A stretch of DNA of 64,000 nt from Scenedesmus sp. PABB004. Lineage: Eukaryota. Positions within the stretch are counted from its first letter, which is position 1, and the number at the start of each line of letters is the position of its first letter. The stretch spans positions 1,364,001-1,428,000 of the forward strand of contig CM026548.1 in NCBI GenBank assembly GCA_014905635.1, in the 5' to 3' direction. The notes beneath the pieces were generated by a model that made no database searches, was not told where the DNA came from, and saw only the letters and a list, made by a program, of their open reading frames with translations. The position numbers were made by a program, and so were the translations under genes. This document shows positions 6,262-48,556 of this stretch, piece after piece.

Positions 6262-6663
6262 TGCTGTTCGCTGCCGTCGGGCGCTGGGCCCGCGCGGCGG
6301 CTGCCTGGGCGGGTCTGCGGTGTCGCAGGGCCCACACGGGGGCCACGGGGCGATGCGTTCGATCGCGGTGGGCCAGCAGCGCAGCGGCGGCGGGCTCAGC
6401 GGCGCGCTCGCGCGGCTGCGTGCTGCGGCTGCCCTGGCCTGGCCTCCACGCGATGCGTGTGTGAGGGAGGCCCACGGGCGGCCGGGTGGTGGCTGTGCGC
6501 GCCGCCGGCCGCCGCGCGAACCGCGCGGGCCCCGCGCCCGCCCGACCGCCGCGCGCCGGTGCGGCAGCAAGCCGAGCGCGGCGGCGCCTGCACGGCGGCG
6601 GCGGTCAGCGCAGCAGCAGAGGGTCGTTGCAGCAGGGGCACGCGCGCCGCCGGCGCCCGCCGC
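6262..6663 (-). repeat. Element R, copy 1 (downstream of LRR copy 1, directly upstream of the SAND gene ATG)
   Basis: Aligns by eye to 8872-9281 (same orientation) and 21827-22256 (inverted), e.g. cctgctgcaac..ccctctgctgctgcgc and gacccgcccaggcagccgccgcgc. Confidence 0.9.
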
Positions 6664-6907
6664 AGCCCGCGACCAGCCGGCCAGCGCGCGCGCCTGCCCA
6701 CTCCGCAGCACGAGCCGCCGCGCCCATCCCAACTCAACTCGCCGCCGCAGCCACGCACATGCCCCGTGCGGCCAGCCACCCAACCACGCGCTGAGCTGCC
6801 CTGGCCGCCTCGCGGCGACAGTGCCGCCGCCAGGCGCGCCAAAGCCACCACCGTGCCCGCAGCTGCGGCGCCGGCCCGGCGGCACACTCTCCGTCCGGTG
6901 GGAAGGG

Positions 6908-8855
6908 TCAATACGTCACCACCACACTGCACTCGCTGCGCACCGCCTGGCGCGCCGCCTGGCGCACCGCCTCTTCCAGGTTGTACACCTGCAGCTCCCT
7001 GAGCCGCACCAGGGCGCTCAGGCAGTGCGCGTTGGCCACCGTGACTGCCGGCGCCGGGAGTCTCAGGTGCGTGAGCTGCGTCAGGCGCTTGCACAGCACC
7101 GGCAGGGCGGCGCCGGTCAGCGTGCTGTCCGAAACCTCCAGAGCCATCAGGCCGGGCAGGCGGCGCGCCACAGCACACAGCGCGCCGTCGTCGATGCGCC
7201 AAACGCAAAGGTCGGCGAGCGCCGGCGGCGCAAGCGCCTCGGCGGCCGCCGCGTCAAACACGCCAGAGGAGCGAAACCGGAAATTGTTCAGGCTGGGCAG
7301 CCGCGACAGCGCCGCCGTCACCGGCGCCAGCGACGCGGCCGGCTGAGGCGCGCCGTCCGCAGCCAGGGGCGGCGGCGCGAGGTGGATGCCGAGCAATTCA
7401 AACTGACGCAGCGCCGTCAGCTGGCCGAGCTCCGCGCCCAGCTCGGCCGCGCTCGGCAGCCCTCCCTCCTCTGCAGTGCCCTGAAGCTGGAGCATGGTGA
7501 GGCCGCGCAGCTGTGACAGGTGCGGCAGCAGGGCGCGCACCAGCGCGATGCTAAGGCCCACCAGCGGCAGCCGCGGCCACACCGGCGCCGCCGCATGCAG
7601 TACCTCGTCGATATCCTCATCATCGCCTGAATCGTCCTCCCACGAGTGCGAGTGGGAGTAATCCAGCTCCACGCTGCTGAGGCGCGCCAGGGCCGTGAGC
7701 CGGCCCAGCTCGTGCGCAGGCACCTGGCGGGCGTCCCCCAGGCGCAGCGCGCGCAGCCGGCTGAGCGCCAGCAGGGGCTCCATGCTGTCAATACAGTCCA
7801 CGGTCAGCTTCTCCAGGCTGGGCGGCAGCGCGTCACCCACGCCAGCGATATACGTGAGTGCAGTCAGCGCGGAGAGGTGGCGCAGGTCCCGGCCGGTGTA
7901 GGGTGGCGGCCCCACCCGGAAAGCGGTCGCTGCCAACTCGACCACGCCCGCCGGCAGGGCGCTCAGGCTGCCCTGAGTGCTAACGACCAGCCGCGTGAGC
8001 TGGTGGTGGCCTGCCAGCGCCGGCAGCAGGCGATGCACCTGGCCGGCCTCGTTGCCCAGCTCCAGCGAGCGCAGGGCCGTCAGGCGTGACAGCGTCGCCG
8101 CCAGGCGCGGCAGGTGCGGGGCGTCGCCACCCTCAAACAGCCAAGCCCTCAGGGACGTGAGGTGGCTGGCGGGCAGCTCCCGCAGCAGCGCCGCTGCAGG
8201 TGCTGCACCGACACATGAGCTGAACTCCAGCAGCCGCAGGGGCCGCGCCGCCGCCGCCGAGCGCAGCGCGGCTGCCACAGGAGCCGTGTCTGGGCTGTCC
8301 CAGACGTCCAGCGCGGCGAGGATGTGCGCGTGGCGCGGCAGCCAGCAGTCGGCGAACGACGCGGCCCTGGCGTGTCGCGGCCCAACACGCAGGCCCCAGC
8401 ACAGCGTGTCGACTGCGCGCGGGCGGCGGCAGGGACGTCAGGGGCAGCGACTGAGCGCGCTGGCCGCGCCAAGCACTGCGATTCAGCGCCCCGAGCCGGC
8501 AGCTGCCGCGCGCCGCCGCCGCCGCCGCGCCCGCTGGCGCCGCCGCCCGCACCCGCGGCGCGCGTGGCGCGGCTGGTCGCGAGCAGCTTGGCCACCACGC
8601 CCAGGTCTTCGTACACCGCCGAGTGCGCCAGCAGCAGCGACCAGGCGTCGTGCAGGGGAGCGGCCACAGCCTCCGCCGCGCCTGGCGGGGTGGCAGCAGC
8701 CGGCGGCGTGGGCGAGCGCGCCGGGCGTGGGCCTGCGGGGGCTGCCTGCCTGCCGCGGGCCACCGCCCCGGGCGTCCTGACGCTGCCACCACGCACGCCC
8801 CTCCCAGCCACGCACCCTGGGCGGCCTCGCGCTGCGCGGCGCGACGGGTGCGCAT
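6908..8855 (-). CDS. Leucine-rich-repeat (RNI-like) protein, copy 1, intact; two short 5' exons then one long LRR exon
   Basis: MRTRRAAQREAAQG|..LHDAWSLLLAH..|VDTLCWGLRV..WLPRHAHIL.., then repeated LxxLxxLxxLxL units (LSRLTALRSLEL, LSQLRGLTMLQL). TGA at 6908. Confidence 0.85.
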
Positions 8856-8871
8856 GGCGGCGCACGGGCGC

Positions 8872-9281
8872 TGCTGTCGGCGCTGCCGCGGCGCCTGGGG
8901 GCGCTGGGCCGGCGCGGCGGCTGCCTGGGCGGGTCGGCAGTGCCGCAGGGCACACACGGGCACCACGGGGCAGTGCGTTCGACCGCGGTGAGCGGCGCAG
9001 CAGCGGCGGCGGGCTCGGGCGCGCTCGTGCGGCTGCTTGCTGCGGCTGCCCTCCGGGGTCTGGAGGCGGCGTGTGTGTGTGCGGGAGGGAGGCCCACGGG
9101 CGGCCGGGTGTGCGGCTGTTCGCGCCGCCGCCGCGTGAACCGCGGGCCCCGCGCCTGTCCGCCTGCCGCGCGCCGGAGCAGCAACACGCCGGGCGCGCGG
9201 CGGCGGCTGTGCCGCGGCGGCGGCCAGCGCAGCAGCAGAGGGGCGTTGCAGCAGGGGCACGCGCGCCGCCGCACACTCCGC
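8872..9281 (-). repeat. Element R, copy 2 (between the HAD stop codon and the LRR copy 1 ATG)
   Basis: Direct repeat of 6262-6663; begins ~8-10 bp after the HAD TGA (9289-9291). Confidence 0.9.
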
Positions 9282-9288
9282 AGGGCGG

Positions 9289-11022
9289 TCAGGCGTCGGC
9301 GCCGGCCATGAGCGCGGCAAAGGCCGCGGCGTCGAGCAGGCGTATGCGCGGGTGCGCCGCCGCGGCGTCGCGCTCGGCGGGCGTGTTGTAGCCCCAGTCG
9401 ACCAGGAAGAGCGACCAGCCCTCCGCGCCGGGCGTCGCCGCGACCTGCGCCGCCCGCACGGCGAGGCGCGCCTCGGCGCGGCGCCCGGCGGCCCTTTGCT
9501 CGCCGCCGCCGCCCCGCCCCGCCGCGTGCCGCCCGGGCGCAGCGCACCTTTTCGAGCGTGGAGGCCTTGTCCTCGACAAACAGGCGCTGCACGGCGCCCG
9601 GGTGCGCGGCCGCGAGGCGCGCGAGCACGGCGGCCTTGGGCTCGCCGCTGAGCGTGGTCGAGTGGATGCGCTCCGCCGGCAGCGGCACGCCCGCCATGTC
9701 CCGGAGCAGCGTCTCGGTGTAGTGCGCCTGGCGAGTGTGTGTGTGTGTGGGGGGGGGGGGTGGGAGAGCCCCAGGGCGCGCGGCGGCCGGACCGTCGGCA
9801 GCGCCGCGGCGCGCCGTGCAGCCGGGGCGCGCCGGCGAGGCTGAGCCCGCCCCCGGCTCGAGCGGCGCTGCAGCCCCGAGCGGCGGCCGCGCCCGCCCGC
9901 GCACGCGCGCCCGCCACCGGCGCAGCAGCGGCCGCACCTGCTTGGTGGTGACCACGTAGACCTCGTCCGCCGCCGCCGCGGCCCGCACCGCGTCGGCGAC
10001 GCCGTCGTAGATGCGGTTGGGCGCGAGCCAGCCGGCCAGGTCCTCCGCGATCCACGCGTCCCGCACCGACCCAAACAGCGACACCAGCTGCGCCCGCGGC
10101 GGCGGCGCGCGACGGCGTGGGCGCGCGGTGGGCGCGCGGCGGCGGCGCGCGGCACGCAAAGACAGCGACCCCGGCCCCGGCGCCGTGCCCCGCCGCGCCG
10201 CGCCGCTCGCCTCGCCGCGGTCGAGGCCCCACTGCTGCATCTTGGCCGGCAGCATCGCGCCCCAGCAGCTCAGCATCTCCTCCACGCCCACGCCCTCGTA
10301 GAGGCACCGAATCTGGACGATGTTCTCATACCTGGGGCGCGGCGGGCCCAGCGCGGCTCACACACAGGGGAGGGAAGGCTGCTGCGCGCCGCCGCGGCGC
10401 GGCGCAGCGCAGCGCAGCGCGGCGCGGCGGTGCGGCGCGGAGCGCACCCCGTCTCGACGACCGGCCGCACCGCGCGCATCTGCTCGACCAGCCGCGGCTT
10501 GGCCGCCTCCGCGGCGGGCGTCTGGAAGATCTCCGGCCACTTGATCGCGGCGGCCTGCAAGCGGCGGCCGGCGCAGGTCGGCCGCCGCGGCGCGGGTCGG
10601 CGGGCCCGGGCGCATGCTGCGCGCCGTGCGCCGCGCGCCTTGAACGCAGACAGGCTGCTCTCGCCCACGGAGTCGCAGATCACGCTGCGGTGCGGGGGCG
10701 CGGCGGGGGCGGCAGGAGGTTGAGCACGACCGCCGAGCTGCTGCGGTGCCCGCGGAGTGCGGCAGCAGCGCCGCCGCTCACCCGTCAAAGTCCAGCGCTA
10801 TCAGGCGCTTGCCGGCCGCGGCTGTCGGCACGAGAGGGAGGAGGTGGCTGTGAGCGCGCGAACGCGGCCGGTGGGGCGACCCGGCGCGCACGCAAGCGCA
10901 CCTGCGACGGCCATTTTGGCGCTGCTGCTCCTCCTGCTGCTCCTGCTGCTCCTGCCCAGCGCCCCGCGCGGCGACGGCCCGCCCAGCCGCCAGCTGTGCC
11001 GCAGTGATGACGACAGTGCCAT
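9289..11022 (-). CDS. Plastid-targeted HAD-superfamily hydrolase (multi-exon)
   Basis: Ser/Arg-rich transit-like N-terminus MALSSSLRHSW. Motif I LIALDFDG|VICDS, then VYVVTTKQ, LFVEDK and LFLVDWGYNT, typical of the cyanobacterial/plant HAD family. Confidence 0.85.
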
Positions 11023-11512
11023 ACGGGGCAGCGCTGTCGAGGCGGCTGCGCGTCGGCGGCGGGCGGCGTGGGCGGCGCTGCCCGCGCAGAGCGCGGCGCG
11101 GTGGCGGCGCTGATCGGCCCGGCCTGCGCGAGAGCCGGCACGCAGGTGTGGGGAGCGGGGGCGAGCGCGCTGCCGAGCTCGGGCGCCCAGCGCCGCGCGG
11201 CGGGGTTCAGGGCTGGCGCCGAGCCGGAGCGGGAGAAGTCTCGCGTATTTACACCTCCCTGCCCTGTTATTGGTGAGGTCATGTTGGCCAACGTTGCTGG
11301 TCAACTGATTATTGCCACTCCAGCCCCCGGCGCGGCGTTGCAGCGGCAGCTTGTCCAGCTGCGCGACGGGCGCGTTGGTTGCTTGCGCAGCAACCGGCGC
11401 CCGCCCGTGCCATCCATCCAACACACTGTGCATCGCGTACGCCCACCTGAGGCCTGCGCCCGCCGTCACCCAATCACCGTGGCGGACGCCGCTCCCCGGC
11501 GCCGCGCCGCGC

Positions 11513-14500
11513 TCAGAAGGTGGTGGAGCTGCGCGCCGCCGCGCCGCCGCCGCGGCTGCTGCGCTCCGCCTCGAGGCTGGTCAGGCGCTCCACGAGCGCG
11601 CGGTTCTCAGCCATGAGGCACGACATGGCCTGGCAGGCGAGGCGGGGCAGGCGGGCGACCCGGCGGGGCGGTGGTGAGAGTGGTGAGAGTGTGTGGTCAG
11701 GCGGGCGGGGCCGGGCCAGCCTCCGCGCCCCGCGCGCCGCGCACGGCGCCGCCGCTGCCGCCGCTGCCGCGGCGTCCGCGCACCTGCTGCGCCGCGTCGA
11801 GCGCGCCCTTGGCGCTGCTGTACTCGTCGTACTCGAGGTGCGACGCCGCGCCGAGCTCGTCCTGCAAGGCCGCGCAGCACGCGCAGCACACGCAGCACGC
11901 GCAGCACGCGGCGCGCGGCGGGCGGGGTCAGGCCGCGCGCGCGCGCGCGCGGGCGCGGGCGCGGCGCGGCGTTGCGCGGCGGTGCGCTGCCGCCCCTTGG
12001 CGCAGCGCCGCGCGGGCCCCGGGCGCCGGCGCGCGCGCGCGACGCGCCTGCACGACCATGGGCAGCTGCTGCCCCGCCTCCTCGAACTGCGCGCAGAAGG
12101 CCACGTAGCGCGCGTACGAGGCGTCGAGCATCGCGTACAGCGAGTCGACCTGGTTGGGGTTTTGGGGATTGAGGAGGGTACAGGGTTCGGGGTTCAGGGT
12201 TTGGGGGCGAGCGGGGCGCGTGCAGCGGGAGAGGTGGCGGCGGCACGGCGCGGTCCCGCGCAGCCCTCTCTCCTCGCTGCCCTCCTGAACCCCGGGCGCG
12301 AGCCGCGCGGCGCGCACCCTGTCGCCGAGCAGGAGGCGCTTGAGCACGATGAGGTCGCTGTGCTCACGGTTGAGCGCGTACGCAGCGCCCCACCTGCACA
12401 CGCGGCGCGGCGCGGCGCGTGCTCGGCGGCAGCGCAGCGTGCGGCGCGCGGCAAGCGGCATGCGCGGCGCGGGCGAAAAGGGGGGAGGGAGGGCGGCGTG
12501 GGGCGTGGCGCGCACTTGTAGTCGCGCACGGGCTGCTCCGGCGCCTTGCCGCCCGCGAGGCCGAGGCCGCTGAGCACCGCCTCGTCCTTCACCTGAGAAG
12601 GGGGGGGCACGGAGGTTAGGGGTCAGGGCTGGCTGCGGGTCTGCCGCGGCCGCCGCGCGGCCGCCGCACGGCGCGGCGCGGCGCGGGGTTTAGGGCCCCT
12701 GCGGCGCGGCGCGGCTGGCACTGTGGCGCACCGCCTCGCTCTTGTTGGAGGTGATGACCGCGAGGGGCAGCGCCTCGGCGCTCAGGCCCAGCGCGGACAG
12801 CACGTCGTCGCCGAACGAAAAGGCCGCGTACTCGAGCGGCGGCAGCGGCGCCGCCTTGGCGTCCTTGGGCGCCGCCGCCGCGTAGGTCCCCGGCGACGCG
12901 AGGCGCGTGCGGACCTGCGCGCGCGGCGCGGCGGCGGCGTGCTGCGTGCCAGCCGCGGCCCGCGGGCCACCGCGCAACAACCACATCACCGCGGCGGCGA
13001 CGGCGGCGGCGGCGGCGGCGGTCGCGGCGGTCGCGGCGGGCCGCGACCGGGCGCGGCGGGGGTCGCGTCACCTCCTTGCGGAACGCGCGCAGCTCGTCGT
13101 CGGTCATGGTGTCGGCCTTGGCGATCACGGGGATGACGGTGACCTGGGGGTGGTTTAGGGTACAGGGTTTAGGGGGGCGGTGCACAGGGGGAGGGCGATG
13201 TTTAGGGTTCAAGGGTCGAACGGCGAGGGCGCGGGCCGCAGGGGACGGGCCCGGGGGGGAGGGCGTGCGGCGGGCGCTGCGCTGCGCTGCGCTGCGCCGC
13301 GCTGCGCTGCGCGGCCGCTGGCCGCACCAGCTGGCTGAGCGCGGAGAGCAGCACGAGGTCGACCTTCTTGAGCCTGTGGGGCGTGATGAAGTAGAGGCAG
13401 GCGGTCACGCTGTGCGACAGCTGCCCGCACATCGCGCTCTGCGTCAGGCTGCGCCCGCCCGCGAGCAGCGCGTAGTCCTGCGTGTGTGTTTTTTTTTGGG
13501 GGGGGGGGGGGGGGGCGGCGGGACCGGTCAGCAGGGACCGGCGGCGGCGCGCTCGCGCGCTCGCGCGCGCCCGCCGCGCGCATGCCCCCCCCCCTCGGGC
13601 GCCCCCGCGCGCGCGCGCGTGTGCCAGCCAACACACGCACCTTGGCGCGCTGTGTGAGGACGTAGTTGACCAGGACGCGGAGGTAGCGCACGAGGTTGAT
13701 GTCGTCGCTCCACCCGGGCATGTCCTGCGGCGCAGACCGGCGGCGGGGGGCTCAAAACCCCGGCTTGAAGCACCAGCTTGAAACATGGGCTGGCTGTGGG
13801 CGCTGGCGTTTGGGCGCGCGCACGCGCAAGTTGTGGCGGCGCGCGGGAGGGGCTGAGCGAGAGCCCCTCCCCCCCTCCCCGCCCTCCCGAACTGGCGCGC
13901 ACCTGCACGGACACGTGCAGGCGGCGGCCGGCCTCCTTGACGTCCATCGGCTCCAGCACCGTCCTCAGCGAGTCGGGGTCGGCCTGGGCGCGGCGCGCGG
14001 GGTTTGGCGGCCGGTGGCGCTCAGCGGGCTCAGTGGGAGGGGCGTCGGCCCGCGCGCTGGCCGGCGGTGGCGCCCCGCGCGCCTCGCGCCCGCCGGCGAT
14101 GGCGCCGTTGTCGTGCTGCCGTTCCAGTCACCTGGAAGTCGGCGAGGCTGGTGGAGCTGCCGTCGTGGGGCTTGTTGGCCGTGGTGTAGCTGGACACCAG
14201 GTTGCGGATGAACGTGGTCTTGCCCAGCCCGCTCTCGCCTGCGCGCGGGGCGTGTGCAGGGCGCGCGGGCGGGGCGCGCGGGGCGGGTGAGCGGCCGCCG
14301 GCCCCACGCGGGGAGCGCTGCCAGCAGCAGCGCTGCCGGCCGGGGCCGCAGCCAGCAGGGGGCATTTGAGCTTTAAGGGCTGCACCCGCCATGAAGTTCA
14401 CGGCGCCGCCGCTGGCTGCTGCTCACCGACGACCATGAAGTTCACGTAGGAGTCCAGCAGCCGCACGGGCACGCGGGGGCGGCTCTGCCACGCGGCGCGC

Positions 14501-15840
14501 GCGTCGGCGGCGCTGATGCCGTGCGCGGGCGCGGGCGCCGCGGGCGCGGGCGTGGGCGCCGCGGGGCGCGGCGCGGCGGGCGCGGCGCCGGCGGCCCGGG
14601 CCGGCGGCGCGAACGCCGACGACGGGGCCTGGGGGCGCAGCTCGGGGGCTGCGCGCGGAGGTGGGGGGGGGGGGCTCAGAGGGGAGGGGGCGCGCTGCGG
14701 CGTGCAGCCGCGCGTCGCGTGCAGCTGCGCAGCCCCGCCGCACGCACCCACGGCGCCGCTGACCACGGCGGGCTTGGCCGCCAGCTGCGTCGCCTTGGCG
14801 GCGGCCTCGGCCGCCAGCGACAGCGCCACCGGCGCGGGCGCCTGCGCCTTGGGCGCGACGGGGGCCGGCGCGGCGGCCTCCTTGGGCGCCGCCGGCGCCG
14901 GGGCGGGCTCCTGCGCCTTGGGCGCGGCGGGCGCGGGCGGCGCCGGCGGGGCCGGCGGGGCCGGCGCCGGCGCGGGCGGGGCCGGGGCCGGCGCGGCCGG
15001 GGCCGGCGCGGGCGCGGCCGGCGCGGGCGGGGCCGGCGCGGGCGCCGGCTTCTCCACGGGCTTGGGCGCGGGCGCCGCGGGCGCGGGCGCCACGGGCGCC
15101 GCGGGCGCCTTCTGCTCCGCCGCCGCCGGCTTGGGCGCGGGCTGCACCGGCACCTTGATCGGCGCGGGCGCGGGCGGCGCGGGGCGCACCGCCGCGGGCG
15201 TGGCGGTCGCGGGCGCGCCGCCGGTGGACGCGCTCGCCGTCTTGGGCGCGGGCGCGGCCTTGGCGGGCACGGGCGCGGGCGCGGCCTTGGCCGGCGCGGC
15301 CGCGGGCGCCGGCGCCGCCTTCGCGGGCGCGGGCGCGGCAGCCTTGGCCGGCTTGGCGGGCGCGGCCTTGGCCGCCTCCTTGGCGGGCTTGGCCTTGGCG
15401 GGCTTGGCCTCGCCGGCGCCGACGAGGCGCGCGAAGAGGCCGGGCTTGCGCGGCGCGGGCGCGGCCGCGGCGCCCTTGGCGGCGGCCGCGGCGGGCGTGG
15501 CAGCCGGGGCGGCGGGCGCCGCGCCCTTGACCACCATGCCGCCGTCCACGGCCGTCTTGCCTGCGCGCGGCGCGGTGCGGCGCGGCGCGGCGGCGCGGGG
15601 CGGGCGGCGGCGCTGAGCGGGGCGGGCTTGGGAGCAACGCGTCTCCCTGCCGGCTGGACGTAGCTCCACAGCGCTGCTGGCGAGCCGGCGGGCCGGCGCG
15701 GCGCCTGGGCGCGCGGGGCCAGCGCCGATGTCCCGGACGCCCCGCCTGCTGCGCCGCGCAGCTGCCGCGCCCAGCTCACTGGTCGGGGCCTCCTTCTTGC
15801 TCATCCCGAACAGGCCGGAGCCCTGCTTGGTGGGCGCCAT
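11513..15840 (-). CDS. Septin GTPase with long Pro/Ala/Lys-rich N-terminal extension and short C-terminal coiled coil (multi-exon)
   Basis: NFMVVG|ESGLGKTT (G1), DMPGW (G3), CLYFITPHRL, VIPVIAKADTMT (G4), RDYK|WG..HSDLIVLKRLL (septin unique element). Confidence 0.9.
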
Positions 15841-16160
15841 GCGCTGCGCTCGCGGCTGCGCGCCCTCAGCTCTGCAACTGCGGCCTGCGCAGCGGTCGCG
15901 CGCTGCGGGGCGCCTGGCCTGCCCTCGAGCTGCGTGTGGATGCTAGAGTGCGATGTGGCCGCGTGCGAGCGAGCTGGGGGCGGCGGTCGAGCGGGGCCGG
16001 GCGCGGTTCGCGCGCGCCGGGACCTCGCGAGCCGAAGCGCGGCCTCCCGATCACGCCCCAGACCCACGCGCGTTCACCGTGCAAGTCACAGACTGCTGGC
16101 GGTGATTGACAGGCTCGCAGCCCGCCGGCCGGGCAGCCAGCTCTCGCCACCGACCTCGCC

Positions 16161-18099
16161 TCACGCGCCGCAGGCCTGCAGCTGCCCCTCCAGCAGCTGC
16201 AGCGTCTCCTGCATGCCCAGCACCGCAGCCACCAGGCGAGCCTCCTCCTCCGCCGCGCCCGCGTCGCCGGCGCGCGTCGCGTGCTGCGCTGCGGCGGCGG
16301 CCGCGGGCGCCGGCTGGGCCGCGTCCGAGGCGCCGCCGCAGCCCCCCGGCGGCCGGTGCGCCTTGAGCTGCGGCGGCGGCGGCAACCCCGGCGCGCGCTT
16401 CTGCTGCTTGAGCTGCAGCAGCTCCCGCAGCCGCGCGTGACGCCGCTGCGCTGCGAGCTGCTGCCGCGCGGCCTGCCGAGCAGTCGCGCCCAGCGCGCCC
16501 GCCCCCGGCGGTGAGCGCCCGGACGGCCCCTGCCCAGGCGGGCTGCCCCCGCCCGGCGCGTCGGCCGGCCGCCCCTGCTGCTGCGCGGGCGGGAGGGGCT
16601 GCGCCTGGTCGCGCGGCCGCGGCGCGCCGGCCGCCGGCGCCGGTGGCGGCCCGCCAGCGCTGCGCGCCCGCCGTGCGGGGCCGCCGCCGCTGCTGTCGCG
16701 CCCCTGCAGCGCCTGCAGCTGGGCGTGCTGCTCCAGCAGGCGCTGCTCCAGCTTCAACACGTAGCTCTCACGCTGCGCGCAGCGGGCGGCGGCAACGGGG
16801 GCACCAACCTGACTGAGCGCCCCCACGCAGCGCACCCGGCGTCCGGTGCGCGCGTGCAGCGCAGCCCCCGGGCCGCCAGCGCCCGCGCCGCACCTCCTGC
16901 GCCGCCGCCGCCGCCTGCCGCTCCCGGGCCGCCAGTGCGTCGAGCCGTTGCTCCGCTGCCGCCAGGCGCTGCTGCGCCTGCGCTGCCGCACGCCCGAGGC
17001 GCGCGCGCTCGGCCGCCGCCGCCGCGGCCGCCGCCTGGGCCTCGCGCTCCGCCGCGGACAGCTGCTGCCGCAGCGCATCGGCCTGGCGCTCAAGCGCATC
17101 CCGCGCGCGCCGCAGCGCCGCGGCCTCCTGCGGCGAGGCGCAGAGTCGGCGCGCGGGCCGACGGCGGCGCGCCGCGCGGGCGCTGGCGGCTGGCGGCGCC
17201 TGCCGCCTCACCCTGTGCAGGCCGCCGTCGCCCTGCGCCGCCGCCGACGGCGCTTGCGGCGACGGCAGCCACGCAGGCGCGGCGGCACCGACCGCCGCGC
17301 CGGCGCCGGCCGTGGTGGCCGCCACGCTGAGCAGGCCCGCCTCCAGCTCTCGCACGCGTGTCTGCGCCCGCGCCCGGGGCGGGCGGGGCGCGCAGTGCGC
17401 GCGCTCGCTTGCCGCCTCCCCGCACCGAGCGCGCAGCAGGCCGCGCCGCCCCCCATAACCGCCGGCCCCACCTGCAGCTGCTGCGCGCGCCCGGCCTGCG
17501 CGACCAGCGTCCGGTTCTCGGTTGCCACGCGCGTCGCCAGGCCCGCCACGTGCGCAAGGGCGCCCTGCAGCTGCTGCAGCATGCCCTCCAGCGCCGCGAG
17601 GCGGCGGCCGCCGCCGCGCGGGGCTCCCTCGACGCCCGCCCGCAGCGCGCTGACCTGCGCCTGCAGCGCCGTGACCTGCGCGCGCGGGGCAGAGCGGGCG
17701 GTTCGCGCGCGGCGGCTCGCGCGCGGGCGGCGGCCAGCCGCCGCAGCGTGCCGCGCGCGTCGGCCGCCGCCGGGCGCGCGCCTTGGCGGCCAGCTGCTCG
17801 TTGTGCGGCGGCGACGGCGCCCAGCCGTCGCCCGCCACCGCCGCAGCAGCGGCCGCGGACGCCGCCGCGAGCGGCGAGCGGGGCGAGCGGGGCGGCTGCT
17901 CCCACGCAGGCGACGCACTGCCGCTGCGCGTCTGCTGCTGCTGCTGCGCCTGTTGCGCGGGGGAGCCGGGTCCGCACAGCAGCTCCACGCGCTCGTCGTC
18001 GGAAAGCGACTGCAAAAACGAAGGCGCCGCGAGCAGCGCCGCGACGCTCGGCGGCGGCGTGCTGCGCGGCGAGCGCCCGCCGCCGCTGCGCGGCCGCAT
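16161..18099 (-). CDS. Hypothetical coiled-coil protein (multi-exon)
   Basis: Spliceable exons with heptad-like text (VTALQAQVSALRAG, LERQADALRQQL, RESYVLKLEQRLLEQ); no family recognised. Confidence 0.55.
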
Positions 18100-18631
18100 G
18101 CTGGCTGTTGGGCCGGGGGCCTGTGGGCGCTCACGGCAGGGGAGCGGGTCGATGCGGGGCGCCGCTCGCCGCACGGCGGCGGCGCGCAGCGGCGGAGTTT
18201 TGGTTGCCCCGCGCGCGATGCGCGAGACCGTGGGCTGGCGGCGTCGGCAGAGGTCTGAGTAGTGGCGCGGTCGGGGACTGGGCGGGCGGTGCGGAGTGGC
18301 GGCGGCGGCGGCGACAGCCCCGTTCGCGCGTCGCGGCGGTGCAGGGCGCGGCGCGCTGCCTGTCCAGCCGGCGAGCTGCCAGTCCAGCCCAGCCAGCGCC
18401 CGACGGTGTGCCCGCTCCCGTCGACGCCGGGGGCCGCCCTCGCCAGGCCGCGCACTCGGGCTGAGCGCTCGCAGCGCCAGGCTGCCCGCCCCGCCAATCT
18501 GCGCGCCCAGCAGCCTCGCGCCCGCCGCCGGTCGCGCGACGCGCTCGATCCTGGCTGGCCCCGCGCGCCGCGCGGTCCAGGAGCTGCTGCCCCGCCTCGG
18601 GGCCGCGCGCGGCGGCCCGCAGGCGCCCGCC

Positions 18632-18780
18632 ATGACCGGCCTGGCGTCGCTCCTTGGTCGCGGGGGCCGGCCGGGCGGCTCCGGGCGGCCGGCAGCAGCG
18701 CCGCAGCACGGCGGCGGCGGGCCGGCAGCAGCGGCGGCGGCGGCGCCGCCGCGCCCCCGCTGCGCCGCCTGGCTGGCGCC

Positions 18781-18837
<57 letters not shown>

Positions 18838-21819
18838 CTGGGGCGCTCCTGTGCCGCCCGCCGCAGCCGGCGGCCTGGCCCGCCACGCGGTGGCCGCGGG
18901 GGTGCAGTGGCAGGCGCCGGCCGTGCCGCGCTGCGCGCGGGCGGTCAGCTGCAGCAGCAGCACCGGCTGGGCCAGCAGCGGCCTGCCCCCCGCCGGCGGC
19001 GCCCGTGCGCGGGCGCGGCGCTGCGCCGCGTCGGCGGGCGACGCCGCGCCGCCCGAGGCGCAGCACGCCGGCGTCGGCACGGTCGCGCTGCCGCCCGAGC
19101 AGCAGTCGCAGCAGTCGTCGCAGCAGCAGTCGTCGCAGCAGCAGTCGTCGCAGCAGTCGCAGGGCTCGCCCGGTAGCTCGGGCGAGGAGGACGAGGCGGG
19201 CGGCGGCGGCGGCGAGCAGGGGGCGGGGGGCGTCGTGCAGCCCGCCACGCAGCCGATGTACAGCCCGCTGCACTATGATGTGCTGGAGTTTGTCCGCCAG
19301 GTGCAGCGCGGCGCGGCGCGGCGTGATGCGGCGCGGCGCGGCGGGCCCGCGCCAGCGGCACAGCCAGCGGGCCGGCGGCGCGGGGCCGCGCGGCGCGGGG
19401 CCGCGCGGCGCGCGGGTGCCACGCCGAGGCCACGCCGACCGCCGCGCCGCGCCGCGCCGCGCCGCGCCCGCCAGGTCGTGCCCACCGCGGCGGAGCGCGC
19501 CGAGAAGCAGCGTGTCATCCAGTGGTGCGCCGCCCGCCGCGGGCGGCGCCGCGCCCGCGGCTCCCCCCCGCCGCCGCCGCGCGCGCCGCCCGCCGCCCAC
19601 GCTGCCCGCGCCGCCCCGGCTCACCCGCCGCCGCGCACACGCGCGCCGCCGCTGCGCGCCCCAGCGTCGCCGCCGCGACCAAGCGCAGCTTCGAGGGCGT
19701 CCCCGGCGTGCGCGTGCAGCCGTTTGGGTCGTTTGTGAACGGCCTGTCGGCCTGGAACAGCGACGTCGACCTCGTGGTCACCGGCCTCGCCACGCCCTCG
19801 CGCGCCACGGGCGGCTTCAGCGCGCCAGACAAGCGCGTCGTGTACCGCGCCCTCGAGCGCATCGCGGCGGCGCTGCGCAAGTGAGGGCCCAGGCGGCGCG
19901 CCGCCGGGGCGCCGGGGCGCCGGGGCGGAGGGGCGGGCGCCGCCGCGCTGCCGCTCCGCCCCTCCCACCACCGCCAACACGCGCCCACCCGCGCCCGCAC
20001 ACGCACCCACGCCCGCGCCCGCCCGCCCCCCCCCCGCGCCCGCCCGCGCCCGCCCGCCCCGCGCTCTCTCCCTCCGCCGCCAGGCACCGCAAGGTGTCCA
20101 TCCGCAAGCTCGTCATCATCCGCACCGCCCGCATCCCCATCATCAAGCTCGAGACCTCCTCCCGCGTCGTCGCCGACATCAGCCTCGGCGACGCGAGCGG
20201 CCCCAAGGCCGCGCACTACGTCGGCCAGCAGGCGCGCCGCGCCGCCGCGCGCCGCCCGCCGCCCCGCCCACCGCCCACCGCCCCGTGCCCGCCCGCAACA
20301 CCCACACCCGCCCACCGCTCGCCCACCCGCTCGCCCACACCCACCCACCCGCCCACACCCGCCCGCGCACACCGACGCGCAGGCGGCCGCGTACCCGCCG
20401 CTGTCGTCGCTGGTGCTGGTGCTCAAGGTCTTCCTCCGCACCCACGGGCTCAACGAGGTCGCCAACGGCGGGCTCAGCAGCTTCGCGCTCACCAACATGG
20501 TCCTCGCGCACCTCCAGCAGGAGCTCAAGGCGCGCGCGCGCGCGCGCCGCCGCACGCCGCCGCGCCGCCGCGCCGCCGCGCCGCGCCCGCGCGCGCCGCG
20601 CCGCCCGCCCGCCCGCGCTGCCCGCCGCGCCGCGCCGCCCTCATAACCTCCGCCGCCCGCCCGCCCCCGCCGCGCCCTTGTTTCGCCCCTGCCTGGCCCT
20701 CGTTTCGCCCCGTCCCCGCCTTGCAGGAGGGCCACGACGTGTACGACCTGGGCGAGAGCCTCTACGCCTTCCTGCTGCGCTTCGGGGACGAGTTCGACAC
20801 GCGACGCGTGCGCGCGCGCGCGGGGCGCGGGGAGCGCGGGCGGCGCGGGCGCGGGCGCGGGCGGCGCGCAGGGGTGGCGCGCGGGCCTGTGGCGCGCCAG
20901 GGCGGCGGAAGGAGGAGCGGCGGCGGGGGCGGCTGCGGCGGCGGTCGGCGGGCTCGGGCGGGCCGCGGCCGACGTGCCCCCGCCGCTGTGCCGCCGCCGC
21001 AGGACGCGGTGAGCGTGGCGCTCGGCGGCTGCGTGCCGCGCGGCGAGCTGGGGCACCTCGAGGGCGCCGACGGCAGCGGCGAGCGGCTGCTGCTGGAGGA
21101 CCCGCTCACGGGTGCGCTGGCGCGGGGGCGCGCGGGAGCGGGTGGGGTCTCGCGGCCGTCGGCCGCCGCCGCCGCCGTCGCACCCCCCCCCCGCGCCCCA
21201 CGCGCCCCGCCGCCGCGCCCCGCCCGCGCCGCCGCTCTTCCCGCGCCGCCGCCGCGCCGCCGCCAGGCCGCGACGTCGCGTCGGGCAGCTACCGCATCGC
21301 GTCGGTGCAGCTCGCGTTCAGCCGCGCCGCGCGGTGCCTCGAGGCGCTCGCGCAGTCCCGCGGCGCGCCCGGCTGCGGCGGGCGGGGGCGGCTGAACTAC
21401 TTGGAGGCCCTCTTTGACGTGTCGCGCGCGCTCGACCGCTCCGCGGCGCCGCGCCGCGGCGGCGGCTGGGGCGGCCCCGGCGGCGTGCCGCCCGGCCTCA
21501 AGGCGGGGCTGGGCGCCGAGTTCTTCGTGGTGGGCCAGGGCACGCGCTACGTGGTGAGGAGGGGGAGGCGCGAGGGGGAGCGCGCCGCGGGTCGGCGCGC
21601 CGTCCTGCAAGCGGCTGGCCGGTGCGCTTGCCTGGCCGGCTGCTGACGCGCGCGCGCGCGCGCGCGGCGCCGCTGCAGGACCCGCTGGATCAGGCGGAGC
21701 TGTCGCCCGGCGACGACGTGGAGGTGCCGCTGGAGGGCGACGACTGGGACGACGAGCTCGAGGCGCTGCTGTACGGCGAGCGCGGCGGCCGGGGGCGCCG
21801 GCGGCGCGGGCCGCGATGA
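18632..21819 (+). CDS. Non-canonical poly(A) polymerase / terminal nucleotidyltransferase, TRF4/PAPD5-like (multi-exon)
   Basis: SPLHYDVLEF, PFGSFVNGLSAWNSDVDLVV (Pol-beta GS..DxD), ARIPIIKL..DISL, LKVFLRTHGLNEVANGGLSSF, LLLEDP. Confidence 0.9.
18782..18835 (+). repeat. (CAG)18 microsatellite, polyQ in the N-terminus of the TRF4-like protein
   Basis: Perfect CAG run read directly. Confidence 0.95.
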
Positions 21820-21826
21820 CCCGCGC

Positions 21827-22256
21827 GCGGCGGGTGCCGGCGCGCGCCTGTGCAACATCCCTCTGCTGCTGCGCCGGCCGCCGCCGCCGCCCAGCTGCCG
21901 CCGCCGCCGTGCAGCTGCCGCCGCCGCGCACTCGGCTCGCTGCCGCACCGGCGCGCGGCAGGCGGGCGGGCGCGGGGCCCGCGGTTCACGCGGCGGCCGG
22001 CGGCGCGCACAGCCGCACCCGGCCGCCCGTGGGCCACCCTCCCGCACACGCGCACCGCCTCCAGGCCCGGACGGCAGCCGCAGCACGCAGCCGCGCGAGC
22101 GCGCAGCCGAGCCCGCCGCCGTGCTGCTGCACCGCTCACCGCGGTCGAACGCACTGCCCCGCGGCGCCCGTGTGGGCCCTGCGACACCGCCGACCCGCCC
22201 AGGCAGCCGCCGCGCCGGCCCAGCGCCCTCAGGCGCCGCGGCAGCGCCGACAGCAG
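21827..22256 (+). repeat. Element R, copy 3 (between the TRF4-like stop codon and the LRR copy 2 ATG)
   Basis: Reverse complement of 8872-9281 and 6262-6663; starts ~8 bp after TGA 21817-21819. Confidence 0.9.
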
Positions 22257-22271
22257 CGCCCGCGCGCCGCC

Positions 22272-24262
22272 ATGCGCACCCGGCGCGCCGCGCGGCGCGA
22301 GGCCGCCCAGGGTGCGTGGCTGGGAGGGGCGTGCGTGGCAGCGTCAGGCCCGCCAGGGGCGGTGGCCCGCGGCAGGCAGGCCGCCCCCGCAGGCCCACGC
22401 CCGGCGCGCGCCCACGCCGCCCGCCGCTGCTGCCACCCGCCGCCCGCCAGGCGCGGCGGTGGCTGCGGCGGGGACCCTGCACGACGCCTGGTCGCTGCTG
22501 CTGGCGCACCCGGCTGTGTGCGAGGACGTGGGCGTGGTGGCCAAGCTGCTCGCGACCAGCCGCGCCACGCGCGCCGCGGGTGCGGGCTGCGGCGCCGCGG
22601 CAGCGGGCGCGGCGGCGTCGCGCCACGCGTCAGCTGCCGGCTCGGGGCGCTGAATCGCGGTGCTTGACGCGGCCAGCGCGCTCGGCGGCTGCCCCTGACG
22701 TGCCCGCCGCCGCCTTTGCCGCCGCCGCCGTTGCTGCTGCTGCGTCGCGCGCAGTGGACACGCAGTGCTGGGGCCTGCGCGTTGATGGCAAGTGCATCGA
22801 GCTCCAGGCAGAGCCGTTCACCAACTGCTGGCTTCCGCGCCACGCGCACATCCTCGCCGCGCTGAACGTCAGGCAGCACCCAGACGCGGCAGCTGTGGCA
22901 GCCGCGCTGCGCACGGCGGCGGCGGCGCGGCCCCTGCGGCTGCTGGAGTTTGCCGTTTGCGCCCAGCTGGGCCCTGCGGCGGCGCTGCTGCAGGAGCTGC
23001 CCGCCAGCCGCCTCACGTCCCTGGGGCTTGAGGTGCGCGAGGGCAGCGCCGTCTCGCACCTGCCGCGCCTGGCGGCGGCACTATCACGCCTCACGGCCCT
23101 GCGGTCGCTGGAGCTCGACGACGACACCAACGGCAAGGAAGTGCACCGGCTGCTGCCGGCGCTGGCGGGCCACAGGCAGCTCACGCGGCTGGGCGTCAAC
23201 GCCCAGGACGGCCTGGGCGCCCTGCCGGCGAGCCTGGTGCAGCTGAGTTTGTACAACGGCGATGATGACGAGCCCTCAGACACCGCGGTCGACCTGCGCC
23301 ACCTCACCGCGCTGACCGGACTCACCTACACCGCTGGCGCGGGCGACGCGCTGCCGCCCAGCCTGGAGGCGCTGGACGTGGAGTGTGTTTACAACACATA
23401 GCCCCTGCTGGCGCTCACCCGGCTGCGCGAGCTGTCCCTGCGGCACGCCAGCGGGATACCTCCGCACGAGCTGGGCCGGCTCACCGCCCTGGCGCGCCTC
23501 AGCAGCATGGATCTGGGCTACACGTGGGAGACGGACGCCGTGAGCATGGAGGCGCTGCTGGCGGCGGCGCCGGTGTGGCCGCGGCTGCCGCTGGTGGGCC
23601 TGCGCGGCGTCCGGCTGGCGCGTCCCATGCTGCCGCACCTGTCACAGCTGCGCGGCCTCACCATGCTCCAGCTTCAGGGCGCTGCAGAGGAGGGGGGGCT
23701 GCCGAGCGCGGCCGAGCTGGGCGCGGCGCTCGGCCAGCTGACGGCGCTGCGCGACCTTGGTTTGATCGGCGTCCACCTCGCGCCGCCGCCCCTGGCTGCG
23801 GACGGCGCGCCCCAGCCGGCGGCGTCGCTGGCGCCGGTGACGGCGGCGCTGTCGCGGCTGCCCAGCCTGGGCAGATTTGAGCTCTCCTGCAGCCCTGGCG
23901 TGTTTGACGTGGCGGCCGCCGAGGCGCTTGCGCCGCCGGCGCTCACTCGTCTGTGGTTGGGGTACCGCAGCATCGAAGACGCCGCGCTGTGTGCTGTGGC
24001 GCGCCGCCTGCCCGGCCTGATGTCCCTGAGAGTTTCGGACCATGACAGCACGCTGACCGGCGCCGCCCTGCCGGTGCTATGTGAGCGCCTGACGCAGCTC
24101 ACGCACCTGAGAGTCCCGGCGCCGGCAGTCACACTGGCCAACGCGCACTGCCTGAGCGCCCTGGTGCGGCTCAGGGAGCTGTGGGTGTATCCGCTGGCAG
24201 AGGCGGAGCGCCAGGCGGCGCGCCAGGCAGTGTGCAGCGAGTGCCGCGTGGTGGCGTTTTGA
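22272..24262 (+). pseudogene. LRR protein copy 2, inverted paralog of 6908-8855, with in-frame TAG at 23399-23401
   Basis: Same exon/intron layout as copy 1. ECVYNT*PLLAL aligns to DCIDSMEPLLAL (GAG in copy 1, TAG here). The frame continues intact to TGA 24260-24262. Confidence 0.8.
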
Positions 24263-24520
24263 CCCCTGCCACCGGCCGGAGAGTGTGCCGCCGGGCCGGC
24301 GCCGCCCCCCGGCTGCGCCGACGCAGCTGCGGGGCGGCGGCTTTGGCTGGCGGCACTGTCGCCGCCAGGCGGCCGGGGCAGCTCAGCGCGTGGTTGGGTG
24401 GCTGCACGAGGCGCATGTGAGGCTGCGGCGGCGAGTTGAGTTGGACGCGCCCGCGTGCGTGCTGCGCGCGCGTGCGGGGCGGCGGGCGGCGGGCGCGCGC
24501 TGGCCGGCTGGTCGCGGGCT

Positions 24521-24593
24521 GCGGCAGGTGCCGGCCGGCGGCGCGCGCGCCTGCTGCAACTCCCCTCTGCCGCTGCGCTGGCCGCCGCCGCCG
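24521..24593 (+). repeat. Element R, partial copy 4 (first ~70 bp) downstream of LRR copy 2
   Basis: gcggcaggtgccggccggcggcgcgcgcgcctgctgcaactcccctctgccgctgcgctggccgccgccgccg matches the R start. It is followed by a 23-bp tandem duplication (ctcaggagggtcgcgtgcggcgg x2, 24614-24659). Confidence 0.8.
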
Positions 24594-31661: not shown

Positions 31662-31858
31662 CGTGTCGTCTGTTGCCGGCGGCCCCCCAGGGACCGGCGC
31701 GGGCGGCGCGGCGCGGCGCCGTGCATTCGCGGCGCGCGCGCCGCCCGCGCTCAGCCGGCGGCCAGGGCGCGCGCGCCGGCGCGCCAGCGGCGTGCGCGCG
31801 CCCCTGGGCCCAGTTGTGGCAGCGTAACTGAGCGAGTGACCGCAGAGCGCTGCTGCCG
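31662..31858 (+). repeat. ~197-bp direct repeat, left copy
   Basis: Near-identical (about 4 mismatches seen) to 43872-44068 at a constant offset of 12210. Confidence 0.95.
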
Positions 31859-32885
31859 GGAGCCAGCCAGCCAGCCAGGCAGGACGAGATCGATGACCGC
31901 CGCCCGCCTGCGCGCCGGACCCGCCGCGCGCAGCAGCCCCGTCGCCGCGGCCACGAACGAGCGTGAGGGGCTTCAGCTGTACAGGCTGATCTCGTCCAGG
32001 GGACTTCCAGGGCGACAAGAACGACGCGGTCGCGGCGGCGACGGACCCCGAGCGTCTAAGCGGTCACTACCCGGCGTCGGGGTCGATCGTGAACGCGCTG
32101 CTCAACAACCAGTGAGCCGGGGCGGCGCCGGCTCGCGCGGGCGCGCGCACAGCGCGCACGCGCCTGCGCGTGCCCGCGTGCGCGCAGCGCGGCCGGGCGG
32201 CTAAACACGGGCGCCCGCGCGCCGCGGCGGCCCGCGCGGCGGAGAACAACGCCCCAGGCGGCCGTCCCAGCCGGCGGCCGGCGCGTTGAGCAGCGGCAGC
32301 GCGTACTGCAGGAAGGGGTAGACCGCCGCCGCCGCCGACACGGCCTTCTCCCAGCTGTGCAGCTCCGTGAACTTCTTGTGCAGCAGCCTGCGGCGGCGGC
32401 GGCGGCGGGGCCGGCGGCGGGGTCGGCACTCTGTGAGCGTGCACGCGGGCTGTGCGGGCCCGGCGGGCGGGGGCACTCGATTGTGCTGCACGAGGTCGCC
32501 TCCACAACAACAGTTCGCCCGGGTGAGACCGCCCCCCGGCTCCCATCGGACGCCGGAGCCCGCCGGAGCCCGCGCGTCGGACGCTCACGCACTCCCTCGC
32601 CCCAGCCAGGCCCCTCCCACACAGCCACGGACCCGGGCCGGCTCTTGTTCCCCCGCGCCCGCCCCGGGTTGCGCGCTCCGGGAAGGTCGAAGGGCCCCCA
32701 TCAGGGCCGCCTTCACCACCCCTCAGCGCTCGACGAGGCGCGGGCGCCATGGCCCCACGCGGGTGCGTGGAGGACGGGCTGGACCGGGCTGCCGGCATCT
32801 CGGGCCTTTGCGAGCGCGGTCGAGCGCCGGCAGCCCCTGCACGCCAGCCCGAGCCGGCATGCCTCGTGCCCTCTTTATCAGAGGC

Positions 32886-43871: not shown

Positions 43872-44068
43872 CGTGTCGCGTGTTTCCGGCGGCCCCCCAG
43901 GGGCCGGCGCGGGCGGCGCGGCGCGGCGCCGTGCATTCGCGGCGCGCGCGCCGCCCGCGCTCAGCCGGCGGCCAGGGCGCGCGCGCCGGCGCGCCAGCGG
44001 CGTGCGCGCGCCCCTGGGCCCAGTTGTGGCAGCGTAACTGAGCGAGTGACCGCAGAGCGCTGCTGCCG
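43872..44068 (+). repeat. ~197-bp direct repeat, right copy
   Basis: Matches 31662-31858. Confidence 0.95.
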
Positions 44069-44322
44069 CGAGGTGGCCAGGGGAGGAAGGGCAGCGGCCA
44101 GCGATCGCCGCCCGCCTGCCGCGCGCAGCAGCCGCGCCGCAGCCTGGCGCGCGGGCAGGAGCTTCTCCTGTGCTCGTTGAGCGTTTAGGCGGTGGGCGTG
44201 GGCCGCGGCGGGCAACGTCGCACGCCTTCCCGCGCGCGCGGACGCGGCTCGCCCGTGGTGCCGCGCGGTCGCGTCTCCCCTGGCCAACGCGCCCGACCTC
44301 GCATTGTGCGCCTTCGGCTACG

Positions 44323-48556
<4,234 letters not shown>

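Follow-up and report, generated by a model that had tools for sequence, protein, structure and literature searches.

Can two neighbouring gene copies keep one scaffold almost unchanged while the surface built on it is replaced, and what kind of gene would evolve in that way? The question is raised by 64,000 nt of the Scenedesmus sp. PABB004 genome (assembly GCA_014905635.1, contig CM026548.1, positions 1,364,001 to 1,428,000), here called the window, which carries two predicted leucine-rich repeat (LRR) genes, copies A and B, as an inverted pair. The figures given for this genome in PMC12571836 include 39.8 Mb, 78.5% GC, 7,092 genes, and 1.3% repeats; the G+C content of the window is 72–83% throughout. 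The reading we favour, with moderate confidence, is a lineage-specific recognition family whose scaffold is kept by purifying selection and gene conversion while its concave and ascending surface diversifies, with occasional exchange of patches and with members gained and lost.

A Conserved Scaffold Carries a Replaced Surface

The spliced proteins of A and B share 402 of 548 aligned residues (567 columns). Their differences are clustered, not evenly spread: the dispersion index of amino-acid differences was 1.59 versus 0.71 for shuffled positions, and 0 of 5,000 shuffles reached the observed value. An initial annotation of this DNA had described a near-identical helical scaffold with replaced strand residues, and the A/B alignment contains each of the three strings that it quoted as invariant and each of its six variant pairs.

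An AlphaFold2 (AF2) model of copy A exon 3, built from a 50-sequence alignment (model m0059d0a82b88), is a solenoid of alternating strand and helix elements (pLDDT 90.8, pTM 0.88). We anchored 18 repeats, spaced 17–40 residues, on the LxxLxL motifs of copy A and numbered the positions (p) within each. DSSP assigned strand state at p3 and p4 in 17/18 repeats each, at p5 and p6 in 18/18 each, and at p7 in 15/18. Strands thus occupy p3–p7, so that p4 and p6 would be the buried leucines and p3, p5, and p7 would face the concave surface. The model reaches Z 17–20 to many solved LRR proteins, as an LRR solenoid. The best low-rmsd (root-mean-square deviation) matches are FBXL2 (Z 19.9, rmsd 3.0 over 243 residues), RipG4 (Z 19.5, 3.1 over 332), and FBXL17 (Z 18.5), with ribonuclease inhibitor, SHOC2, Skp2, and NLRP3 within 1–3 Z units of the best matches. 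The top Foldseek match was TIR1 (E 5e-10, TMq 0.45), and COI1 and MAX2/D3 gave TMq 0.44–0.49. A model of the full-length homolog P0009 (pLDDT 90.7) matched FBXL17 at Z 20.5 (2.5 over 248) and FBXL2 at Z 20.4. The predicted fold is of the CC/FBXL-like LRR subtype.

Two further paralogs from the same genome, C (P0004, KAF8066403.1) and D (P0068), extend the comparison to four sequences. Counted as residue states among A–D and averaged over the 18 repeats, variability was 1.11 at p1, 1.22 at p2, 2.11 at p3, 1.22 at p4, 2.67 at p5, 1.56 at p6, 2.67 at p7, and 2.06 at p8, then 1.7–2.2 over p9–13 and 1.2–1.5 from p14 onward. Columns with at least three states made up 26/54 at p3/5/7 and 31/108 at p8–13, compared with 4/72 at p1/2/4/6 and 13/237 from p14 onward (Fisher p = 4e-13 and 1e-8 for the first two classes against the last). 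In the model, the variable surface is the concave strand face from p3 together with the ascending loop, and the helices are almost invariant. This agrees with the annotation's placement of the variable residues on the concave strands and the loop that follows; these sites vary far more than the equally exposed helical side. Position p2, a textbook "x" position, is conserved, and the variable zone runs into loop p8–13 and is not confined to the strand.

Replacement at Predicted Concave Sites Exceeds Intron Divergence

Codon tests (Nei–Gojobori) compared copy A with copy B only. Over the whole gene, the synonymous and nonsynonymous proportions pS and pN were 0.161 and 0.167, with dN/dS (ω) at 1.04. 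Divided by position, ω was 2.33 at p3/5/7 (54 codons; pN 0.375, pS 0.193) and 1.68 in loop p8–13, against 0.62 in core positions p1/4/6, 0.20 at p2, 0.64 on the helical side from p14 onward (pN 0.080, pS 0.120), and 0.68 at the N-terminus. In this pairwise test, then, the ratio exceeds 1 on the surface and indicates purifying selection elsewhere.

For p3/5/7, the bootstrap 95% interval was 1.09–6.64, with 1.35% of replicates at or below 1, and 5 of 5,000 random codon sets reached the observed pN − pS. The a priori xxLxLxx set (p2, 3, 5, 7, and 8) gave ω 1.46 (0.88–2.78), with 7.6% of replicates at or below 1 and 238 of 5,000 random sets reaching it. Among single-difference codons, the variable class held 8 synonymous and 46 nonsynonymous changes (plus 39 multi-hit codons) and the remainder 27 and 23 (plus 19; Fisher p = 3e-5). 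The proposal of diversifying selection at ligand-facing sites is thus borne out for p3/5/7 in a single pair of sequences, whereas the interval for the canonical set includes 1.

Noncoding DNA supplies a second yardstick. The Jukes–Cantor-corrected dN at p3/5/7, 0.52, is 4–5 times the intron distance of 0.09–0.12, so the introns have not diverged to the level of the variable codons. Neither of the two outcomes that the annotation named as refuting it, evenly spread substitutions with dN/dS at or below 1 at concave-face sites or introns as divergent as the variable codons, is what the data show. As uncorrected DNA divergence between A and B, the compartments rank from exon 1 (0.050) through exon 2 (0.085), intron 2 (0.086), the 5′ upstream block (0.098, falling to 0.062 in its proximal 245 nt), and intron 1 (0.108) to exon 3 (0.174) and the 3′ flank (0.180). 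The earlier statement that introns and flanks align well therefore holds for the introns and the 5′ flank but not for the 3′ flank.

Mosaic Relationships Among the Four Paralogs

Silent differences concentrate near replaced residues, with a 5-fold enrichment beside them. Among residue-identical codons, 27 of 128 beside a replaced codon carry a synonymous difference, compared with 9 of 179 at a distance of 3–8 codons (Fisher p = 2e-5) and 2 of 82 at 5–8 codons. Because silent changes cluster by replacements, segments of the gene differ in age or in mutational input.

The relationships among paralogs also change along the gene. The 22 parsimony-informative columns join A with D and B with C in 14 cases, A with B and C with D in 5, and A with C and B with D in 3. 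These incompatible groupings fall in spatial blocks: 14 of 21 adjacent pairs agree, a level reached by 154 of 10,000 shuffles. On sequence grounds, such mosaic groupings are the signature of exchange between paralogs, and exchange would also account for the high identity of the introns, the 5′ region, and the scaffold codons. The clustering of silent changes and the mosaic paralogs together make inter-paralog exchange and uneven coalescence part of the pattern.

Evidence from related populations comes from assembled contigs of two runs (X1 and X2) of one freshwater-metagenome study. An X1 contig covering 7690–8415 is A-like over 725 nt, with 38 differences and 3 gaps; 11 of the 38 differences are unlisted, and 22 of the 27 listed lie in three patches totalling 84 nt (binomial p = 1e-16). 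Of its 15 replaced residues, 7 match paralog D, 2 match B only, and 6 are new. X2 carries the reference form where the X1 contig is mosaic, and each sample shows one form at 8195–8299. The X1 contig has the appearance of either a conversion tract or an additional, fifth member of the family.

Concerted evolution without positive selection would explain part of this record. In that account, old duplicates are homogenized by conversion, and exposed strand and loop sites are merely unconstrained, keeping their old divergence where conversion tracts fail or meet heterology. The clustering of silent differences with replacements, introns and a 5′ region more alike than exon 3, the mosaic partitions, the whole-gene ω, and the inclusion of 1 in the canonical-set interval are all consistent with it. 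It does not account for the i, i+2 periodicity within a five-residue strand, where p3/5/7 vary and p4/6 are conserved, a spacing impossible from tract boundaries. The excess at p3/5/7 is measured against silent sites of the same codons and seldom falls to 1 in bootstraps, and the helical face, although equally solvent-exposed, is near invariant. Nor can neutral sites outrun the neutral rate, and dN here stands against a local dS of 0.22. We consider conversion without positive selection somewhat unlikely and continue to prefer a surface under diversifying selection.

Programmed, targeted diversification of the patches—by cassette-templated conversion or local hypermutation, like the assembly of variable lymphocyte receptors (VLRs) or diversity-generating systems—seems barely credible. 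Near-identical blocks of 50–100 nt do border each unalignable patch of 20–60 nt, patch states are common to otherwise different paralogs, and silent sites within patches have changed too. However, the 64-kb window holds no partial cassettes or extra copies, germline paralogs alone were seen, the contigs, with their one form per sample, give no sign of within-clone variation, and ordinary ectopic conversion accounts for the same facts.

Both Copies Evolved as Coding Genes

Indels separate coding from noncoding DNA. Seven of nine exon-3 indels are multiples of 3, and the remaining pair, of 13 and 11 nt and separated by 36 nt in the acidic loop, adds up to 24, whereas 2 of 20 intron and flank indels are multiples of 3 (Fisher p = 7e-4). 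Since all exon-3 indels are net frame-preserving, both copies evolved as coding genes.

Each copy shows one potential lesion. Copy B contains an in-frame TAG where the homologous codon of copy A is GAG (Glu). Every metagenome contig covering 23399 reads G (X1, 3 contigs, depth 20.7/20.7; X2, 1 contig, 6.8/6.8), among them B-specific pieces at 23391–23590 and 23352–23615 with 2 differences each. With GAG in the covering contigs, copy B is intact in those related populations, and the TAG of the window reflects either strain variation or an error in the assembly. In the mitochondrial code of Scenedesmus, TAG stands for a residue; such a sense reading was rejected here in view of the GT..AG introns, the nuclear-type composition, and the GAG of relatives. 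In copy A, both runs carry a 1-nt deletion at 8055 (in a GGG run, codon string L-G-N; depth 3.5–5.8), and no compensating change is listed. The deletion could be a real loss-of-function allele that frameshifts copy A there, or a low-depth contig error.

The TAG and the deletion are what would be expected if one or both copies were pseudogenes drifting neutrally, with the site pattern a residue of former constraint. The frame-preserving exon-3 indels set against those of noncoding DNA, a scaffold ω of 0.58–0.64, the GAG in every covering contig, and the same open architecture in four paralogs make decay very improbable, and we retain functional genes as the basis of the recognition-family reading.

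Gene Structure and Family Membership

In both copies, an ATG exon and a second exon sit upstream of the long frame, in other frames (Table 1). The longest open frame of copy A is 6911–8437 (minus strand, 509 aa); in copy B, a single frame spans 21647–24259 (plus strand), broken by the TAG alone. Introns run GT..AG in both copies (134 and 140 nt in A; 139 and 175 nt in B), and their length differences between A and B are non-multiples of 3. The gene model deposited for paralog D contains the same junction peptides, ..REAAQG/A.. and ..ATRAA/VDT.. (slash at the junction). No database protein was found that corresponds to copy A or to copy B.

Table 1. Positions in the window of the two LRR copies, their duplicated surroundings, and block R
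Feature	Positions	Strand	Remarks
Copy A gene, predicted	6908–8855	−	Three exons, 557 aa, coding sequence (CDS) 1674 nt, in frame, one terminal stop
Copy A exon 1	8816–8855	−	ATG at 8855
Copy A intron 1	8682–8815	−
Copy A exon 2	8553–8681	−	N-terminal helical motif LHDAWSLLLAH..VVAKLLATSRATRAA, F-box-like, putative
Copy A intron 2	8413–8552	−
Copy A exon 3	6911–8412	−	Cap and ~18 irregular LRRs with hypervariable patches (AF2)
Copy A stop	6908–6910	−
Copy B gene, predicted	22272–24262	+	CDS 1677 nt, in frame apart from one internal TAG
Copy B exon 1	22272–22311	+
Copy B intron 1	22312–22450	+
Copy B exon 2	22451–22579	+	Counterpart of the copy A motif exon
Copy B intron 2	22580–22754	+
Copy B exon 3	22755–24259	+	Homologous to copy A exon 3
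Copy B in-frame TAG	23399–23401	+
Copy B stop	24260–24262	+
Duplicated segment around copy B, full extent	21827–24593	+	Inverted partner of 6593–9281 (self-blastn)
Block R of copy A	8899–9283	−	Upstream noncoding (intergenic region, promoter, 5′ untranslated region), duplicated along with the gene
Block R homolog upstream of copy B	21827–22228	+	Compared with the copy A block as the 5′ upstream compartment
Block R, solo third copy	6279–6665	−	Directly downstream of copy A (blastn)

An exhaustive HMMER search returned 66 proteins with E ≤ 1e-3, of which 7 reached E ≤ 1e-10 and a single one E ≤ 1e-30. The nearest were P0004, 70% identical across the stretches that matched, and P0068, 69% identical across 97% of the query. 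Their LRR parts show 61–69% identity to the window by tblastn; being distinct from A and B, they represent the two additional paralogs, C and D. The remoter members, at 25–40% identity, comprise two Tetradesmus obliquus proteins and many metagenome proteins. A word-index homolog search gave 2 weak matches at near lengths, none shorter, and, as longer proteins, both PABB004 fused models and one Tetradesmus protein. In metagenome contigs, a protein-pattern scan with P0001 yielded 126 pattern matches, none of them confirmed, and an exact 23-nt conserved pattern gave 0 matches. Narrow full-text searches of the literature found no description of this LRR family.

The deposited P0004 and P0068 are over-long fusions of neighbouring genes that translate even the 5′ untranslated region of the LRR gene. 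In P0004, paralog C is merged with a chlorophyll a/b-binding protein and a trypsin-like protease. P0068 combines paralog D with an upstream protein, a part resembling ATG16 (coiled-coil/WD40), and additional sequence.

In Pfam, the exon-3 product scored best with LRR_14, where its 36.2 bits (E = 3.7e-9) fall short of the cut-off of 40; LRR_At5g56370 gave E = 0.56. The 509-aa product of copy A thus reached no curated Pfam LRR gathering score; the homologs P0007, P0008, P0009, and P0034 pass LRR_14. Pfam found only LRR families in the 509-aa product and no NB-ARC, NACHT, kinase, or transmembrane family, in keeping with the annotation's own impression, and the gene model has only 56 residues N-terminal to that product.

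A Near-Invariant N-Terminal Motif

Exon 2 encodes a ~45-aa motif that is near invariant across paralogs A–D. It can be aligned at the N-terminus of 14 family members (consensus L..LLQH........C.LL.TSK....AV...C.GQL), and a conserved cap, F..WL....LL..L, comes after it. In the P0009 model, the helices before the first strand are residues 3–11, 14–17, 19–26, and 30–39.

The initial annotation had proposed a search of this exon for an F-box-like motif. Even with E values up to 10 allowed, the exon-2 peptides of both copies matched no Pfam F-box model (PF00646, PF12937). Of the 14 N-terminal segments, one matched F-box at E = 0.0062 and one F-box-like at E = 0.027, both weak and below threshold; P0007 matched F-box at E = 0.088. 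The N-terminal profile found no F-box chain among PDB sequences, its single match being irrelevant (E = 2.1). For P0009 residues 1–110, the nearest ESM-Atlas clusters were F-box and F-box-like, at 0.91 and 0.90, scores that shuffled proteins reach 4–10% of the time. The structural alignments of P0009 covered residues 48–560 only, and so not the N-terminal 1–47. The motif at most suggests a degenerate F-box.

The Inverted Duplication and Its Surroundings

Self-blastn of the 64-kb window identified a single inverted duplication, 6593–9281 against 24593–21827, with 82.1% identity over 2826 columns. Within the span 6908–24262, ~13 kb of unrelated genes separate A from B, and tblastn with all four paralogs as queries found no further copies or fragments of the family in the window.

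Block R, the upstream noncoding segment duplicated along with the gene, recurs as a solo copy, oriented like the block of copy A and matching it at 82.8%, with a match of 83.4% to the block of copy B (22228–21827) (blastn); its similarity stops short of the expected ATG position. Downstream of copy B lies just the first ~70 nt of a block R. Because block R stands on both sides of copy A and begins again after copy B, the solo copy is probably the remnant of a tandem array with a unit of ~2620 bp. A mobile element was also considered, since direct copies of block R lie on either side of copy A; a tandem-array remnant is simpler, and a general Pfam scan of the protein, beyond which no search was made, gave no transposon family.

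The ~75 nt before the start codon (8856–8930 and its homologs in B, C, and D) are almost identical across all four paralogs. This stretch appears as a common read-through peptide (..APAQRPQAPRQRRQQRPRAAMRT..) in the fused models and exceeds much of the coding sequence in conservation. It may act in regulation or may just belong to the conversion tracts.

Other repeats in the window include a direct pair unrelated to the LRR genes (31662–31934 and 43872–44143; 89.5% over 276 columns), Ala/Pro/Lys-rich internal repeats at 14829–15525 (self-matches of 65–67% over 500–600 nt) in a long minus-strand frame between the LRR copies, and long dinucleotide microsatellites at 46600–47700, with several frames reading (TH)n/(SL)n and (VC)n/(ER)n.

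A Proposed Recognition Family and the Points That Weigh on It

The proposed history treats A and B as members of a small, Scenedesmaceae-specific family evolving by birth-and-death. Scaffold DNA—helices, core leucines, introns, and 5′ region—would be kept alike, probably by gene conversion between paralogs, while the p3/5/7 strand residues and the ascending loop p8–13 would be driven apart by diversifying selection, and hypervariable patches would occasionally be swapped between paralogs. The variable concave and ascending surface would bind different or fast-changing protein targets, and the invariant N-terminal motif would tie all paralogs to a single shared partner, for which a Skp1-type adaptor of a Skp1–cullin–F-box (SCF) ubiquitin ligase is the most plausible candidate. 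Recognition is the likely function. The analysis itself shows the anatomy, the predicted fold, the excess of replacements at particular sites, the preserved reading frame, and the mosaic make-up of the paralogs; target binding, the SCF link, and any anti-pathogen role are steps that we infer.

Several points weigh against this reading. Codon-level DNA is available for two sequences only, and the p3/5/7 class was picked after the four-way profile, its register being confirmed later by the AF2 strands; the a priori xxLxLxx class, with its ω of 1.46, has an interval extending below 1. The whole-gene ω is what relaxed constraint would also give, and with a genomic GC content of 78%, dS may be lowered and ω raised by codon bias or by GC-biased conversion. 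The patchiness is partly a product of unequal age or conversion of segments and not of selection on residues. The metagenome contigs are de Bruijn assemblies and possibly chimeric across conserved blocks. The TAG of copy B and the deletion at 8055 in copy A suggest that the genes are individually dispensable. Finally, an F-box is unsupported at Pfam thresholds and by the PDB-sequence profile, and the structural alignments spanned residues 48–560.

A bolder extension of the recognition-family reading would make the near-identical scaffold DNA a set of homology handles for ectopic conversion of short strand and loop cassettes. The outcome, in a unicellular green alga with a minimal genome of 40 Mb, would be a combinatorial, population-level repertoire of SCF-coupled LRR receptors that tag fast-evolving viral or parasite proteins for degradation, an algal innate immunity based on F-box-like LRRs in place of nucleotide-binding LRR receptors (NLRs). 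We judge this extension unlikely.

Very little is known about recognition or immune-type systems in unicellular green algae, though viruses and parasites shape algal populations and cultures. This LRR family is a concrete candidate: it is compact and lineage-specific, carries a conserved putative docking motif, and shows a predicted binding face that evolves faster than introns, mosaic paralogs, and polymorphic presence or absence of function. Its small size (four known members), confident predicted structure, and clearly bounded patches make it readily testable. Should concerted evolution and relaxed loops prove to be the whole story, the locus would still illustrate cleanly how gene conversion acts patch by patch in a genome of extremely high GC content.

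Comparison With Known Systems

The LRRs of plant NLRs and receptor-like proteins have hypervariable solvent-exposed xxLxLxx residues and undergo sequence exchange within clusters. The window genes resemble them in variation on exposed concave strand residues, loop indels, and mosaic clustered paralogs. They differ in having no NB-ARC, TIR, coiled-coil, kinase, or transmembrane domain, and in a conserved p2 with the variable zone displaced towards the strand's C-terminal end and the ascending loop.

Lamprey and hagfish VLRs combine an invariant framework with concave-strand diversity generated by conversion-like copying between LRR segments. That diversity is somatic and is built from incomplete germline cassettes, whereas the copies here are complete germline paralogs, with no cassettes for a VLR-type somatic assembly in the 64-kb window.

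Among F-box–LRR proteins, the Ralstonia GALA/RipG effectors are structurally close: the LRR domain of RipG4 superposes at Z 19.5–19.6 and rmsd 3.1–3.2 over 332–346 residues. RipG proteins are injected bacterial effectors, at 18–20% identity, whereas the window genes have spliceosomal introns and algal paralogs. FBXL-type SCF receptors (FBXL2, FBXL17, Skp2; TIR1/COI1/MAX2-D3) share the layout of a short helical N-terminal motif—here the helices before the first strand in P0009—followed by ~18 LRRs, and the solenoid superposes best on FBXL2 and FBXL17 (Z 19.9–20.5, rmsd 2.5–3.1). These Z scores lie within 1–3 units of unrelated LRR proteins (ribonuclease inhibitor, SHOC2, internalins), so the fold match is non-discriminating. 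The N-terminal motif, unlike theirs, falls below all Pfam F-box thresholds and retrieves no F-box chain by profile.

The adaptive ubiquitin-ligase adaptor families of nematodes and plants (F-box and MATH-BTB) are described in PMC8120010, citing Thomas 2006, as pairing a conserved docking domain with a positively selected substrate domain; the same source reports tandem and inverted local duplicates with copy-number and loss-of-function polymorphism among them. The contrast here between N-terminal ω (0.68) and concave-site ω (2.33) runs in the same direction. Those families have hundreds of members and FTH/FBA or MATH recognition domains, whereas the present one, from a unicellular alga whose genome measures 39.8 Mb, has four known paralogs and recognizes through an LRR domain, as proposed here. 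As a kind of system, recognition families of the LRR or F-box type whose binding faces are hypervariable are already known. New here are the family itself, its presence in a unicellular chlorophyte with a minimal genome, and a scaffold that contrasts very sharply with its patches.

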